64,000 nt of DNA from a virus (Duplodnaviria; Caudoviricetes). The notes beneath the pieces are model-generated. The model did not search any database and was not told the DNA's origin. It saw only the letters and a program-made list of their open reading frames with translations. The translations under genes and the position numbers were made by a program. Each line of letters opens with the position of its first letter. Position 1 is the stretch's first letter. The stretch spans positions 11,497 through 75,496 of IMG/VR virus record IMGVR_UViG_3300033075_001053, one strand, 5' to 3'. Positions 16,270-32,558 of this stretch are shown piece after piece.

Positions 16270-17181
16270 ATGAGTGACACAACACTTCCGCCGGTCGAGG
16301 ATCTTGTAGCAGATCCCGGGTTGCCGGTAGAAATACCAACGGATACTGTTGACGATCAACAAGATCCGCCGATTGAGCCAGTAGCCGATCCGGTTGAAGA
16401 TGCTTTTATCGTCGATTACCAAGGCCGTGAGGTCGAAGTATCAGTAAACGATCTGCCTGAGCTCATCGCCTTGCGCGAGAACCGGGCGGCAGAATTGGCT
16501 TCTCTGGAAGCCGAACGTAATGAAGTGCTGAAATACAAAGACTTGCTGAATTTCATTAACAACGACGACTTTGCCCAACGGGTACTCAGTTATCGAATGG
16601 ACCAAGGCAACGACCCAAGAAAGATTGCGGAGTTTTTGTATAACCACTACACCAAAGAACCTGAAATGGACCCGAACGAACTTCCAGAAGTCCGCGAAGT
16701 AAAGACGCAACTTTCTCAGCTCGAGAAGAAACTGCAGGCGCAAGAACAGGCCTCAGCGATTCAGGCGATGACCAACGAAAACTCACGAGTGATCAACGAA
16801 GCTTGGAATGGCCTCGGTCTGGCAGCGAAAGAAGGCGACTATCCGAAGGTTGTGGAGGCCATCAACGCCGTTGGTTCAAGACTCTACAATGTTCCGAACT
16901 TCAACATTGCTTCTGTCAGACTAAACAAGGATATGGTCGAGGCGATTCTGGAGCGAGCACAAAAGGCTTACCCGGGTCTGATTCAGACCGCCAATCCGAG
17001 TCAAGTCAAGAACAACGCGGTTCCTGGCGTTCGCCGGGTTCTCAAGCAAAAGTCACCGGTTCAACAACTCCCCGGCTCTGCTGGTGGAGGAGCCAACAGG
17101 GTCGCACCTGCTGATAATACGCCCGTAGAAGCGTATTCACCGCGGGCAGCCCGAGAGAAGTACGCAAAAATCTTTGGATGA
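16270..17181 (+). CDS. Capsid scaffolding protein
   Basis: Between portal and MCP; acidic Pro-rich N-terminus, coiled coils, basic C-terminal helix. Confidence 0.7.
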   Translation: MSDTTLPPVEDLVADPGLPVEIPTDTVDDQQDPPIEPVADPVEDAFIVDYQGREVEVSVNDLPELIALRENRAAELASLEAERNEVLKYKDLLNFINNDDFAQRVLSYRMDQGNDPRKIAEFLYNHYTKEPEMDPNELPEVREVKTQLSQLEKKLQAQEQASAIQAMTNENSRVINEAWNGLGLAAKEGDYPKVVEAINAVGSRLYNVPNFNIASVRLNKDMVEAILERAQKAYPGLIQTANPSQVKNNAVPGVRRVLKQKSPVQQLPGSAGGGANRVAPADNTPVEAYSPRAAREKYAKIFG

Positions 17182-17245
17182 TCTACTTGTAGCGGGTTAG
17201 AGAAAGAATCCAAACTCCATGTAATAAACTTTTGAGGATATTCCT

Positions 17246-18547
17246 ATGCCAAGTACAGGATCAACCACCAGATTAGGGACGCGGACAACGCAGAACCATA
17301 ATCCGCAAGATCTACTTCCGGATGTCGACGAAATGCTTCGTCGCGTAGATCCTACTTTGCTGCAGTTTACGACTCTGCTCGACAAAATGCCGAAAGGCAA
17401 AAAGCCCCGCACGAATCGTATCGACTGTCGCGAGTACCGTCCCTTCGACTACCTCGACCAGATTACTGGTATGACGGTAGGCATTAGTGGTAACAATGAA
17501 ACCCGCTATGCGAACATTACCGTCGCGCAGCGCTCGCTCATCGCGACCACTCCAACCGACATGATTTACCAACCGGGCGACCGTCTCGTTATTGTCGAGA
17601 CCGGCCAGGTTGTTGAAGTCATGGCGACTCCGACTGAGAACATCAGCGGCCTTCCTTCCTTCTCTGCCGCCCTTGTTGGCAACGGCACCCAGCTCCCGAA
17701 CCCGGGGCACATCATTGTTCGCAACATCCAGCCTGTTGCAATTATCGATCTTTCCAGCGCTCTTCCATGCTTCTTGAAGTTCATGGGTCACGGCTTCTAT
17801 GAAGGTCAGCCGATGGAGTCAAAGTCATGGATGCGCGATCCTGTGTACAATTACAACTGGCTCGGCAACACCGAAAAGGTTATTGAGTACACGGAGGAAG
17901 AGACAGATCTGATCATGACCCGCGGGTCAATCAGAGACATTGACTTCCAGAAGGAAGAATCCTATCAGGAAATCAAGACCGACGTTGAACTCATGCACAT
18001 GGACGGCAAGGGTGCTTTTGATGCGGTTGTTCGCAACAAGCCCAAGCTGCACATGCGCGGACTTCTGGACTTTGTAAACACGAACCAAATGGTTTACAAT
18101 CCTCTGGCAGCCAACCTCAACTTCGAGCAATTGATTCGTACGTGGATGACCAACCAACTTTTCCGCTACTGTCCCGATGGTATGCGTAAGCTGGTTCTGG
18201 TCGGCGAACGTCTTTCTGATGCGTTTATGCAAGTGTTTGATGTCTATCGCCGCAAGGATATTTCCGGTGGACAGCAAGCGAATCTTGCGGGTGTGAGCTT
18301 TACGTCGTATGAATTTAACGGTCGCGTGATCGACCTTCTGACATATCGTCACTTCCGGATTGAAACCCCTCAGGCATGGTGGGCACTTGGCGTCAATCTG
18401 CCACAGATTGAAGCTCGTCCGCACACCGAGTATCGCTTCCGCGATGCGACGCTTGCTGATCAACGTATCATCAAGCACGTCATCGAGTGGAAGGGTTCAA
18501 TGGCTGTTCACCTGGAAGAAACACACGCATTACTTCGTACTGCATAA
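17246..18547 (+). CDS. Major capsid protein (HK97 fold, SU10/DUF5309-like)
   Basis: 433 aa after the scaffold; N-terminal QDLLPDVDEML...PT and mid-region MRGLLDFV patterns typical of this MCP group. Confidence 0.8.
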   Translation: MPSTGSTTRLGTRTTQNHNPQDLLPDVDEMLRRVDPTLLQFTTLLDKMPKGKKPRTNRIDCREYRPFDYLDQITGMTVGISGNNETRYANITVAQRSLIATTPTDMIYQPGDRLVIVETGQVVEVMATPTENISGLPSFSAALVGNGTQLPNPGHIIVRNIQPVAIIDLSSALPCFLKFMGHGFYEGQPMESKSWMRDPVYNYNWLGNTEKVIEYTEEETDLIMTRGSIRDIDFQKEESYQEIKTDVELMHMDGKGAFDAVVRNKPKLHMRGLLDFVNTNQMVYNPLAANLNFEQLIRTWMTNQLFRYCPDGMRKLVLVGERLSDAFMQVFDVYRRKDISGGQQANLAGVSFTSYEFNGRVIDLLTYRHFRIETPQAWWALGVNLPQIEARPHTEYRFRDATLADQRIIKHVIEWKGSMAVHLEETHALLRTA

Positions 18548-28544: not shown

Positions 28545-28868
28545 ATGAACGAACTATTTTCTCCGCCGACCGCGGTACCCGACGACTTCACCTTGGGCGT
28601 GTCCAAGAAGAAGGACAAGAATAGCATTATGGATCGCAAGGCGTTTCGTCTTGGCGTTCAGACGGCTATCAACGCACAGACTCAGCAAAGTTTGAATCAA
28701 CAACAGTCCCAACTCCAGAACGCAACCATGCAGTTTCTTCAGATCCAGGCTCAAGCGGCCTTGGGTCAACAGGCTCTTGCTAATCAGCACATGCAGCAGA
28801 GCCAGGGCGGCGGACCTCAGGAGATGGTACATTATCACACAGCCTTGCCTAACCAGATGCCTCAGTGA
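28545..28868 (+). CDS. Gln-rich hypothetical protein
   Basis: QTQQSLNQQQSQLQ...QIQAQAALGQQ; ATG 3 bp after the upstream stop; GTGA overlap downstream. Confidence 0.55.
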   Translation: MNELFSPPTAVPDDFTLGVSKKKDKNSIMDRKAFRLGVQTAINAQTQQSLNQQQSQLQNATMQFLQIQAQAALGQQALANQHMQQSQGGGPQEMVHYHTALPNQMPQ

Positions 28869-29497
28869 CCACTTATCAAATGATAGATCGGTTGAGGGAC
28901 ATGCTCGACGATCCAAAAGGTGGGCCAAGGAAAGTCGGTGAAAGTTACTCAGACCTTGAAATAATCAGCCAGCTCGACATTTCGACTCTGGATGTGACCC
29001 GTTTTTTCTATGAGAACCGGGCGATCTTTCGTTTGCAGCGCCTTGTCAAGGTCGAACAACTACAGATCTTAGGCGATCCCTATACCTATTCCAACTTCAC
29101 AGACGGGCTCTTTGTACTTCGGTGTACCTTTGGCCGTGTTCCGGCGCGGATTTATACCGGAGGACTCGGGGATATCTTTGAAGCGCCGGATCATTACGCG
29201 GTGATGGTCGAAGGGTCAGACCTGGTTTTTGTTGGCGGACTCAATCTTGATGCGTGGTTTTGGTACATCAAAAAGCCAAGATTGTGGGGAGGAAACTTTT
29301 CTCTGGATCACACAGACTTCGAGCGGTCGGTCTATAACGCTATTGCTTATCACGCCGCCGGAACGCTGGCCATTAAGAACGAAGGAACAGAAGACGCAAG
29401 AACAGCCAATCGATACTTGTCCTACTACGGGCAACTTATCGGCAAGCTCGCGGAGGCCTCGTCTATGCAAATCATTATGGACGAGGTGGTGATGTGA
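28865..29497 (+). CDS. Head-tail adaptor/ring protein, paralog 1
   Basis: N-terminal helix MTTYQMIDRLRDML, C-terminal helix IAYHAAGTL; P22 gp4/T7 gp11-like layout. Confidence 0.6.
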   Translation: MTTYQMIDRLRDMLDDPKGGPRKVGESYSDLEIISQLDISTLDVTRFFYENRAIFRLQRLVKVEQLQILGDPYTYSNFTDGLFVLRCTFGRVPARIYTGGLGDIFEAPDHYAVMVEGSDLVFVGGLNLDAWFWYIKKPRLWGGNFSLDHTDFERSVYNAIAYHAAGTLAIKNEGTEDARTANRYLSYYGQLIGKLAEASSMQIIMDEVVM

Positions 29498-30117
29498 CCG
29501 TACGGCAAGCAGTCAATATCGTTCGAACAATGCTCGACCAAAGCGGGGAGGAGTTTTACCCAATTGTGGAAATCCTCATTGCGCTTGAAGACGCTCAGAT
29601 CGAGAAGGCGCGGGAGTATTATCGCAGTGGTCGGCGGGAGTACATTCAAAGTCTCTATGTCGGAGAGTCAATGGTAAACGGCGGGCTCACGGCCAGAGGT
29701 GACGTAAGTCATGTTTTGACCTATGACCCAATGTTTTTCGAGGCGTGTTTTGTTCGGATGTATCCGGATGAATCTTCCGCTCGAAGATTTGCTATCTACA
29801 TGGACCCGGCCAGATATGCTGAGTATCAGTTTTCGAACCAGGGTGTAGATGGAATTCGAACAGGGAAGCTACAGTATACTTTTGCCGGTAATGTCCTTCG
29901 TCATAACGGTGCGGACGACGGCGCAGGGGTTTACGCAGCCAGAGCGGTGTATTACCGCGAGCCTACGATCCCCTCGATCTCAACGGCATTCTTGCTACCG
30001 GACTATACCCATGGCGATATCGTGGACCGGGCGGCCAAAATGCTCAATGAGAAGAACCCAATTAACGATCATGAAGCAGTAGGTTTAACAAGTGACATTA
30101 TTCAAAGGAAACAGTAA
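29494..30117 (+). CDS. Head-tail adaptor/ring protein, paralog 2
   Basis: MTVRQAVNIVRTML ... LLPDYTHGDIVDRAAKML. Confidence 0.6.
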   Translation: MTVRQAVNIVRTMLDQSGEEFYPIVEILIALEDAQIEKAREYYRSGRREYIQSLYVGESMVNGGLTARGDVSHVLTYDPMFFEACFVRMYPDESSARRFAIYMDPARYAEYQFSNQGVDGIRTGKLQYTFAGNVLRHNGADDGAGVYAARAVYYREPTIPSISTAFLLPDYTHGDIVDRAAKMLNEKNPINDHEAVGLTSDIIQRKQ

Positions 30118-30188
30118 TGGCAGGAAGCACAACAAGACTCGGCGTGAGAACAACACAAACTCACAATCCTCAGGATCTTAAACGGTGA
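30117..30188 (+). CDS. 23-aa peptide paralogous to the MCP N-terminal arm (absent from ORF track)
   Basis: MAGSTTRLGVRTTQTHNPQDLKR; TAATG coupling to the upstream gene; 17 of 19 residues identical to MCP residues 5-23. Confidence 0.75.
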   Translation: MAGSTTRLGVRTTQTHNPQDLKR

Positions 30189-30202
30189 GAGAACATTCCT
30201 CC

Positions 30203-30967
30203 ATGTTGGTTCGTGAGGTGATTGATATCATCCAGGATCAGCTTTCTTTGTACGAAGACCGAACAAAGGTCGACGGCAAAACAATCTGGCGCTTTCTTAA
30301 CAACGCCAGAAGGGAGGTGTTTTCTCGAATGATACCAGTGAAGGAGCAGGGATTTACCAAGGTGGTTCAGCTTGGACACGGTAGTCCATTGCCGGCGGAT
30401 TACTCGCGAACAATTCGCGTGTATGCTACAACTTCAGTAGGAATAGTCGAGTGCCGGCAGGCTGATCCTCGTGAGTGGTGGGACGTTACCAACCCGACCC
30501 GACAAAAGACCTTTACCTCTGGTAATGCCAGAAGCCCGGTGTATTGTCTGTGGGGAGAGATCTTAACGGGCGGGCGGGTGAGTCGGCTGGATAATACCTT
30601 AGGGATATTGCCACTAACACTCACTGACCCGAATCGTGACAAGGTGTTTTTCTACATTTCTCCATCGGTCTCTGCGACTATGGAGTACAATGGGAATTAT
30701 GGCGACCTTCCGGTGGACGTCAATGGGAATCCTGATCTTGGAGTATCGATACAAGTTCCCTATGAGTATGAGGAGCTGGTTCTACTTCTAACCAAGTGGA
30801 GATGCTTTCTCAAGATCATGGATAAGTCTAAGTGGATTTCACTTAATCAAACAATGATGAGCGAGGAACAGAGACTACGAAAAGCCTTTATTGCCCGGGA
30901 GCAGACCAAGAGTCAAGAGTTGTTGACCTTGATTGCCCCGCAACCATCAGTAACCCCTGATCTATAA
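30203..30967 (+). CDS. Head-tail adaptor/ring protein, paralog 3
   Basis: MLVREVIDIIQDQL ... VPYEYEELVLLLTKWRCF; ATG 30203 aligns with the paralog N-termini. Confidence 0.6.
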   Translation: MLVREVIDIIQDQLSLYEDRTKVDGKTIWRFLNNARREVFSRMIPVKEQGFTKVVQLGHGSPLPADYSRTIRVYATTSVGIVECRQADPREWWDVTNPTRQKTFTSGNARSPVYCLWGEILTGGRVSRLDNTLGILPLTLTDPNRDKVFFYISPSVSATMEYNGNYGDLPVDVNGNPDLGVSIQVPYEYEELVLLLTKWRCFLKIMDKSKWISLNQTMMSEEQRLRKAFIAREQTKSQELLTLIAPQPSVTPDL

Positions 30968-31806
30968 TGCCGCATACTTGCAAGACATACATGGAAGAGG
31001 CGATGCTGAGGCTTAACCGGTACGAAGTTCAGGCCGAGCTCGACGACGGTTCAGCAGAGATGCTGGTCAATCTTGCGCGCCGGGATGTGCAACTGGCCAC
31101 GATAGGTCTGTTCCCCGAACGCTACGCAGGCATTCACCGTCTTGACTTGGAGAACAATTTTCTCACAAGTGAGCTGCAGGAGTTCCGTCAAGTGATTACC
31201 AGAGGAGGCCTCCCGGATACTATTCGCTGGTATGGTTATCAACTCCCGGACGACTTCATTGAAGAGGTGGCTGTTTACGTAAAGTCAGAGGCCAATGGAG
31301 ATTGGTGGCGAGCCCGAAAGACCACAAAGCAAGAGATGTGGGCGGTCTCTCGTAGCTCAACGCTGGCTCCGACAGTAAGAGAGCCAATGTATTTCGTGGA
31401 GAAAGACACTGATTCTGATGCTTATCGAATTGCCTGTAGTCACGGAGGAACGCCGATCATTGCTTCTGAGTGGATTGAGGTTTGGTACAAGAAAGCCCTG
31501 CGCTGGCTTCAGATGTTCAACAGCGACTACCAAGGGAATCCTGATGAGTCGGACATTGAGGTGGCGATGAATTATGAGTTCGAGGAATGGGTGGTCTACC
31601 GGCTTATGATCCGGGTTCTGGAGAAGCTTAATTGGGCAGACCAAAACATCAAACAAATCATTGATTTGGATATTCAGCGAATTGTATCTTTATCGAGTTC
31701 AAACTTTAGTACAAGTATCGACGAAGTTGGGATATTGGTGCCGAGCAAGAGACAGACCTGGCCGGTCCCAACGTACGAAGTACCACATGAGGCTCCGCAA
31801 CAATGA
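30967..31806 (+). CDS. Head-tail adaptor/ring protein, paralog 4
   Basis: LVNLARRDVQ, YQLPDDFIE, MNYEFEEWVVYRLMIRVL. Confidence 0.6.
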   Translation: MPHTCKTYMEEAMLRLNRYEVQAELDDGSAEMLVNLARRDVQLATIGLFPERYAGIHRLDLENNFLTSELQEFRQVITRGGLPDTIRWYGYQLPDDFIEEVAVYVKSEANGDWWRARKTTKQEMWAVSRSSTLAPTVREPMYFVEKDTDSDAYRIACSHGGTPIIASEWIEVWYKKALRWLQMFNSDYQGNPDESDIEVAMNYEFEEWVVYRLMIRVLEKLNWADQNIKQIIDLDIQRIVSLSSSNFSTSIDEVGILVPSKRQTWPVPTYEVPHEAPQQ

Positions 31807-32558
31807 CAACCTGGCACGAATACTACGACGACTTCGAGCAGAAGATCCGGCTCTACCAACAGCGACTTCCAATGACGGAAGTTTCTTTCATGCGTCTGGC
31901 CTCAGAAGCACTGCAGGCCGCAGAGCGTCGGACGGTTGTTGTCGATAACACTAAGACGATTTCCGGTACGGACGGGATTACCTTTGACCTTACGACAGCG
32001 GGTGAAGGGTATGATGTGCTGATTCTTCAAAAAGTTATCGATCCCTATGGTGCAGAGATAGTGCCTCAGTCTGTCAGTCAGAAGCAAGACAGCATGGAAC
32101 TGGCATACTATGGGCTTAACGAACCTCCGCACCGATTCTCTCGCGGGAAAGTAGGGACCACGATTGGCACTACGTCTGGGTACGAACACCGAATCTACGA
32201 TTCGAATGGTTCGCAGATCAGAGTCTATCCGGCGCTCAGACCCAGTGATGTTCTAACGATACAGTACTTTGTTGAGATCCACAAGTTCTCCGCAAACTCC
32301 CCGCAGTGGGCGGCGTTCTTTCCGCTTAACACCGCCTTCGGTACGGCCTTCGAGCTGGCTCCGCCACTGGAATGGCAGCAACTCGACGACTGCATGATGG
32401 CTTATTGTGTGATGGAGTACCTGATTAATATCGGTAATCCGAATTTTGTTGTTTGGCAGCAACGCTACGAACAGGCTTTGCAGACAGTGAAAGACAATCA
32501 GCAGACATTCTTCACAGAGGGCGCGACCCCGTATACAACTACGCCTCATGGCTTCTAA
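31803..32558 (+). CDS. Head-tail adaptor/ring protein, paralog 5
   Basis: IRVYPA, PLEWQQLDDCMMAYCVMEYL...WQQRYEQAL. Confidence 0.6.
   Translation: MTTWHEYYDDFEQKIRLYQQRLPMTEVSFMRLASEALQAAERRTVVVDNTKTISGTDGITFDLTTAGEGYDVLILQKVIDPYGAEIVPQSVSQKQDSMELAYYGLNEPPHRFSRGKVGTTIGTTSGYEHRIYDSNGSQIRVYPALRPSDVLTIQYFVEIHKFSANSPQWAAFFPLNTAFGTAFELAPPLEWQQLDDCMMAYCVMEYLINIGNPNFVVWQQRYEQALQTVKDNQQTFFTEGATPYTTTPHGF

Follow-up and report, generated by a model that had tools for sequence, protein, structure and literature searches.

The window analyzed here, a stretch of 64,000 nucleotides (11497-75496) from a 75.5-kb IMG/VR virus record whose completeness is estimated at 97%, carries on its + strand a very small ORF (30117..30188; 23 codons followed by TGA) whose basic product copies residues 5-23 of the major capsid protein (MCP) of the same phage and ends in Lys-Arg. 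At the level of sequence, our comparisons with independent assemblies, with a sister strain and with more distant relatives show that this mini-ORF exists, that it is conserved in frame, that its amino acids are under purifying selection and that it constitutes a separate cistron. A real and selected peptide gene is therefore very probably located at 30117-30188. As for its role, we lean, with modest confidence, towards a translated micropeptide that would mimic the N-terminal arm of the MCP in trans by means of an arm-socket mechanism, and that would act during head assembly or in the virion.

The mini-ORF is located within a series of tail-ring genes. The upstream tail gene, named ring 2 (29494..30117, + strand, 207 aa), ends with a TAA (30115-30117) whose last base is the first base of the mini-ORF ATG (30117-30119), generating a TAATG overlap. 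Likewise, the TGA of the mini-ORF overlaps the GTG at 30185 that opens the next gene, ring 3, generating a GTGA motif and a 4-nt overlap of the two ORFs. The initial annotation had pointed out the TAATG coupling, a distance of about 13 kb from the MCP gene and the location of the next ORF in the -1 frame, and all are as it described them (distance of 12.9 kb; start at GTG 30185). Direct reading reveals a Shine-Dalgarno-like AAGGAA (30105..30110, + strand) located 6 nt 5′ of the mini-ORF ATG, with AAGGAG at the same position in the sister strain described below. It also reveals, inside the mini-ORF, an AGGA (30172..30175, + strand) located 9 nt 5′ of GTG 30185 that is retained in the sister strain and is likely the ribosome-binding site of ring 3. 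The encoded peptide is rich in Thr, Val/Ile and Arg, and its net charge is at least about +3. No Rfam family matched the region 29800-30500 at E values up to 1, and scans for promoters and terminators detected nothing near the mini-ORF on the + strand. An imperfect 9-nt direct repeat (7/9 identities; 30109-30117 and 30180-30188) flanks the mini-ORF, each copy ending in an in-frame stop. This repeat may be the footprint of an insertion event or may be due to chance; it hints, weakly, that the Lys-Arg-stop end of the mini-ORF could derive from the old ring 2/ring 3 junction.

The MCP gene (17246..18547, + strand) encodes a protein of 433 aa that belongs to the SU10_MCP family (Pfam PF17236; 33.6 bits for a cutoff of 24.1, residues 215-431 being covered). 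Codons 3-21 of the mini-ORF align with MCP codons 5-23 (17258..17314, + strand), which encode the N-terminal strand of the capsid protein. The codon-by-codon comparison shows that 17 of the 19 residues are identical, with 5 identical codons, 12 synonymous differences and 2 replacements (37 identical bases out of 57); the residue identity and the 12 synonymous codons out of 17 that had been claimed initially are thus exact. The divergence between the two copies amounts to saturation and matches that of MCP genes whose products share only 57-63% identity. When the start of the shared peptide was back-translated in degenerate form, the only matches in the window were the mini-ORF and the MCP gene, and none was obtained in 100 shuffles; furthermore, no third copy of the arm was found anywhere in the 75.5-kb genome. 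The copied arm begins at residue 3 of the mini-peptide, with neither a leader nor a cleavage motif ahead of it. According to an AF2 model of the MCP that has a low confidence (pLDDT 47; 9 sequences), the copied segment is N-terminal and passes from unstructured to strand ahead of helices at residues 27-45. Searches by sequence found no solved structural relative of the MCP, and PHROGs contained no family for the MCP or the ring genes. A putative scaffold gene (16270..17181, + strand) was assigned by its position alone, between the portal and MCP genes. The gap between this gene and the MCP gene of the window (17182-17245) does not contain any mini-ORF, and the window phage shows no prohead protease.

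A single-base assembly error, which the initial annotation had considered as an alternative explanation of the frame break between the mini-ORF and ring 3, was rejected since four independent assemblies (the IMG/VR record and the Logan contigs from SRR27448546, SRR27448548 and SRR27448536) agree on both the ORF and the frame break. The three Logan contigs belong to a diverged sister strain, whose DNA identity to the window is about 85% over 7 kb, and the mini-ORF that they carry in frame (L002:323-394, L009:5915-5986 and L010:5339-5410) does not differ from that of the window in its length, its stop or the frame break behind it. Over the mini-ORF, the window and L009 differ by seven bases, corresponding to five synonymous and two replacement changes (pN/pS 0.13); with 17 synonymous and 52 non-synonymous sites, the binomial probability of at least five synonymous changes out of seven is about 0.01. 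In the two other frames, the ratios of synonymous to replacement changes are 0.5:6.5 and 1:6. Since the synonymous bias is found only in frame 0, this is the frame in which the mini-ORF is read, and its product is under constraint. For comparison, the flanking genes of the same two strains have pN/pS values of 0.02-0.12 and pS values of 0.3-0.6. The proposal that the peptide is under selection and does not result from a recent DNA duplication is therefore supported, both by the pN/pS observed in the sister strain and by the constrained mini-ORFs that were found in relatives.

Ring 3 (30185..30967, + strand, 260 aa from GTG 30185) encodes an adaptor/ring protein according to Pfam (SU10_adaptor, PF24175; 28.5 bits for a cutoff of 27), an AF2 model (pLDDT 88) and Foldseek. 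The latter retrieved with a probability of 1.0 the SU10 tail (7z47_A/B), Pa223, the phicrAss001 tail-barrel (7qoj_D/E) and the GP4 and N4 adaptors, with an E value of 1.6e-7 and a TM of 0.49-0.55 for 7z47_B. This profile score and this fold match constitute the likeness of ring 3 to the gp11 adaptor of SU10 and to the tail-ring proteins of phicrAss001. In contrast to these phages, the window phage has five tandem genes, one junction of which holds the mini-ORF. A search in 5.8 billion proteins revealed a single cluster closely related to ring 3 (97% identical), and an exhaustive HMMER search in 1.8 billion representatives revealed 78 homologues. Among the 73 aligned homologues, 60 have exactly six residues ahead of the first conserved column, matching a start at GTG 30185, and none has an N-terminal extension of about 20 residues. 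No fusion of the mini-ORF with ring 3 was found among the 78 HMMER matches or in the 5.8-billion-protein search. Whether the two are fused in related phages had been asked in the initial annotation. Because most of the aligned ring 3 homologues start at the position of GTG 30185 and none is extended, the mini-ORF is a cistron of its own and probably not the N-terminus of ring 3. The alignments also indicate that ring 3 probably starts at GTG 30185, and that the start proposed by gene callers, ATG 30203 (254 aa, as in the public clusters), is probably six codons too short.

Two further adaptor-like paralogs (30967-31806 and 31803-32558, + strand) complete the tandem ring-gene block (30967..32558). 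Ring 3 and ring 4 are related according to BLASTP (E 1e-6), and ring 5, the second of these paralogs, reaches 26.7 bits with SU10_adaptor, the cutoff used for ring 3 being 27. Overall, five tandem genes encoding proteins of 207-279 aa (28865-32558), at least three of which are adaptor-like, precede the gene of a protein of 1857 aa. The tandem block is conserved in all the relatives whose contigs were fetched. In these relatives, the ring 2 and ring 3 genes overlap by ATGA (L004 and L027/L029), by 11 nt (L026) or by 32 nt (L007), leaving no space for a small ORF. Since these two genes directly overlap in relatives, the mini-ORF of the window is an insertion of about 70 nt that is specific to its lineage.

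The relatives of the MCP form eight clusters (56-99% identity), whose contigs were fetched and scanned in all six frames. The best-conserved part of the MCP among these relatives is its first 40 residues or so. The scan revealed copies of the MCP N-terminus, 17-22 codons in length and located between the scaffold and MCP genes, in five related lineages: L007:9702-9770 (also in L008), L015:3245-3301 (minus strand), L030:8634-8690, L031:4597-4653 (also in L032) and L034:1668-1721 (also in L035). These mini-ORFs start 1-4 nt past the scaffold stop in L007, L030 and L031, and they end 3-27 nt ahead of the MCP start. Four out of five have their own Shine-Dalgarno sequence, the one from L034 being devoid of it, and the MCP genes of the relatives have their own strong Shine-Dalgarno sites past the mini-ORF stop. 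The peptides from L007 and L015 are identical for all 18 aligned residues while 11 of their codons are different; similarly, those from L030 and L031 share 16 of 18 residues with 10 synonymous codon differences. The excess of synonymous changes estimated by the Nei-Gojobori method among the mini-ORFs of relatives has a P value of about 0.001-0.004 in six of the ten pairs and of 0.03-0.3 in the other four. As in the window, the mini-ORF of L007 largely differs from its own MCP gene in codon usage, with a different codon at 12 of the 14 positions where the residues are identical.

Whatever their genomic position, all the mini-ORFs stop at the codon homologous to that of the Asp in the "LPD" of the MCP, and in all of them the two residues ahead of the stop are basic and replace the MCP residues found there. 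No mini-ORF was found near the MCP gene in L003, in L004 or in the distant L033, nor at the ring 2/ring 3 junction in L004. Since L003 lacks a copy at the first of these positions and L004 at both, the mini-gene is dispensable or replaceable. In every case seen, a genome carries the arm copy in one of the two positions and never in both. It should also be emphasized that these mini-genes were overlooked by the gene calls on every fetched contig because they are so small (17-23 codons). Outside this set, blastn and tblastn searches found no related cultured phage in INPHARED. IMG/VR yielded only one distant contig, GTDB genomes yielded nothing, and JGI metagenomes yielded one MCP besides chance matches.

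In the MCP tree, the five lineages with a mini-ORF between the scaffold and MCP genes form a single clade (support 100/99), and the window lineage groups with L003 (93/91) apart from this clade. The contig of the L003 lineage ends 2.3 kb past the MCP gene, short of the ring 2/ring 3 junction. On the basis of this tree, two independent origins, at the MCP gene in one case and within the tail-ring genes in the other, would be more parsimonious than a single origin, since they would involve fewer events than one origin followed by losses and a move. The mini-ORF of the window and its own MCP also have in common two lineage-specific residues, Thr instead of His and His instead of Val. That all the mini-ORFs have the same end point and a basic cap argues either for descent from a common ancestor or for convergence imposed by a shared function. 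The nucleotide identities in these comparisons (0.5-0.65) are saturated and uninformative as to the origin of the window mini-ORF.

The N-terminal arm of HK97-fold capsid proteins reaches onto neighbouring subunits and contacts the scaffold in procapsids. Because its sequence reproduces that of the most N-terminal strand of the MCP, the peptide is expected to bind the partners of this strand, whatever they are. It would occupy the socket of the N-terminal strand on a neighbouring MCP subunit, on the scaffold or on the portal. Such an arm provided in trans could fill the sockets that are left empty where the portal replaces a penton; alternatively, the peptide might cap sockets on unassembled MCP or compete at the scaffold. 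In phage SU10, the N-arm differs between pentamer and hexamer subunits (PMC9509320). From the TAATG and GTGA chaining, the peptide would be made together with the tail-ring proteins, and ribosomes would be passed on to the GTG start of ring 3. The mini-genes are found within late structural operons and always belong to a translationally coupled series. With five lineages carrying it between the scaffold and MCP genes, a role in the head rather than in the tail is suggested, and the location of the window copy among ring genes would be compatible with a low-copy expression near the portal. The idea of a filler of the portal vertex is however somewhat weakened by the fact that the mini-genes of relatives lie between the scaffold and MCP genes and not among tail genes. 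A role in translation alone would also be consistent with the location of the mini-ORF, which in all six lineages immediately precedes a major structural gene.

Taken together, these data can be read more broadly, although only tentatively and with less confidence than we give to the arm mimicry itself. A clade of uncultured SU10-like podophages would encode copies of the MCP N-terminal strand of 17-23 residues, each with a basic cap. Acting as "arms" supplied in trans, these copies would plug the N-arm sockets of the assembling head or of the virion, for example around the portal, where five arms are missing. They would have arisen twice, as is more parsimonious, and together with gp61.1 of phage T4 they might represent a widespread type of capsid-arm mimic that has escaped notice.

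A purely translational role would make the mini-ORF a leader cistron only, derived from the strong initiation region of the MCP gene, that loads ribosomes on the next structural gene (ring 3 in the window, the MCP gene in relatives) and opens its mRNA, and whose peptide has no function. The setting recalls known leader cistrons and translational coupling by its TAATG and GTGA overlaps and by its site directly 5′ of a highly expressed structural gene. The position immediately 5′ of such a gene in the six lineages (out of six) that have a mini-ORF, the ring 3 ribosome-binding site inside the mini-ORF, whose stop overlaps the ring 3 GTG, and the short distances to the scaffold stop (three lineages) and to the MCP start in relatives are all consistent with this explanation. 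However, a leader would only need to stay open and the amino acids of a coupling-only leader peptide are not expected to be conserved, yet the peptide was kept while codons drifted, as shown by the comparison of L007 with L015 and by that of the window with the sister strain. Moreover, the MCP genes of relatives already have strong Shine-Dalgarno sites past the mini-ORF stop, and L003, L004 and L033 have these genes without any leader. A leader devoid of any peptide function is therefore unlikely in our opinion. Another explanation is a free decoy that would titrate a host factor (defence sensor, protease or chaperone) recognizing the MCP N-terminus and that would protect or regulate the MCP rather than enter the capsid. 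Indirectly in its favour, the peptide tracks its own MCP, the two substitutions of the window lineage (His to Thr and Val to His) being common to both, and some lineages do without the gene, as is often the case for accessory counter-defence genes. Nevertheless, we consider such a decoy to be quite improbable, since the mini-genes are located in late structural operons and not among early or accessory genes, and no defence-related family or neighbour was seen.

The initial annotation had also considered that a -1 shift joins the peptide to ring 3. According to this hypothesis, a programmed frameshift near AAA-CGG-TGA would provide some adaptor subunits with an N-terminal extension derived from the capsid arm. 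Ring 3 is indeed in the -1 frame and shares 4 nt with the mini-ORF, the sister strain has the same junction, and both strains retain a hairpin starting about 20 nt downstream (z of -2.23 in L009). However, the downstream fold of the window is not significant (z -0.74), and a TAA in the -1 frame (30179-30181) leaves only 30182-30188 (AAA CGG TGA) for the shift, where there is no X XXY YYZ heptamer and where re-pairing would be poor. In addition, GTG 30185 is where most homologues of ring 3 begin, with no extension in any of those aligned. In relatives, the mini-ORFs terminate at the codon where that of the window does, there being no ORF to which they could be joined, and their frames with respect to the MCP gene vary between lineages. 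Overall, this joining is very improbable. The last explanation, that the mini-ORF is a decaying MCP fragment resulting from recombination, or an artefact due to an assembly indel, could invoke its lineage-specific presence at the ring 2/ring 3 junction, the imperfect repeat (30109-30117 and 30180-30188) flanking the insertion, and the possibility that the synonymous differences predate the transfer, having accumulated inside the donor MCP gene. It is already largely refuted by the concordance of the four assemblies and by the maintenance of the start, frame, stop and peptide since the strains split, with the synonymous bias (P of about 0.01) mentioned above, and we give it hardly any credit.

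An independent analogue of this mini-gene is gp61.1 from phage T4 (NP_049649), a 54-aa "hypothetical protein" whose residues 2-38 are 46% identical (E 1e-9) to residues 57-93 of gp23 (L036:3967-4131, - strand, for gp61.1; L037:4946-5395, + strand, for the gp23 region). Like the window peptide, gp61.1 is encoded by a short separate ORF and is a copy of the N-terminal region of its own phage's HK97-fold MCP. However, gp61.1 is more than twice as long and has a charged tail past the copy, and its gene is located among early replication genes whereas the copy of the window belongs to a structural operon. Comparison by eye shows no sequence in common between gp61.1 and the window peptide, and the copy of the window starts at the extreme N-terminus of the MCP. 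The copy carried by gp61.1 presumably spans the site of gp23 that is cleaved by the gp21 protease. By analogy, the window peptide may work like the gp61.1 class without being a member of it by descent. A literature search found no study of the function of T4 gp61.1, and full-text literature searches did not reveal any account of small ORFs that copy a capsid N-arm.

Several other systems resemble this peptide in one respect or another. Small proteins that act in trans on capsids or their assembly include cement proteins and inner-capsid proteins such as "Arstotzka" from phage P68, and the C-termini of the scaffolds of P22 and 80alpha bind the MCP N-arm. Like the peptide proposed here, these are small polypeptides from head or late operons that bind the HK97-fold lattice or N-arm sites. 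To our knowledge, none of these proteins duplicates part of the MCP, and with 17-23 residues the mini-peptides are several times shorter than any of them. The window peptide may also be likened to eukaryotic microProteins, or dominant-negative domain mimics, as a tiny homologue of a single interaction element that presumably occupies the site of this element. MicroProteins are however known from plant and animal transcription factors and not from virus capsids, making this likeness an analogy only.

If the arm mimicry that we favour is true, this would be a new kind of phage assembly factor, in which a fragment of the capsid protein is made separately and used in trans. It would provide a handle on how HK97-fold lattices cope with empty arm sockets at the portal vertex and on how premature polymerisation of the capsid is restrained. 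With T4 gp61.1 as an unrelated analogue, a general principle may have been overlooked. At its soberest, this work reveals that gene finders overlook selected micro-ORFs in structural operons, besides correcting the start codon of the neighbouring adaptor gene.

Some mini-ORFs of relatives have additional features. In L034 and L035 (L034:1650-1725), the mini-ORF is located 5 nt past a TATAAT and has no Shine-Dalgarno sequence, and the transcript from which it is translated may be leaderless. Over its first five codons, Pro codon included, this mini-ORF is identical to its MCP gene, which suggests a recent gene conversion of the 5′ part. The mini-ORF is in frame with the MCP gene, from which it is separated only by one or two stops and a short spacer, in L007 (9702-9788), L015 (minus strand) and L034 (1668-1727). 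It is out of frame with the MCP gene in L030 and L031, and therefore read-through of the stop is not a common feature of these elements. Finally, a short ORF located around L007:20963 (also L008:20927), in another frame inside a gene encoding 2227 aa, begins with a Met and a stretch of seven residues resembling the MCP arm, followed by a basic run; about 0.1 such regex match is expected by chance.
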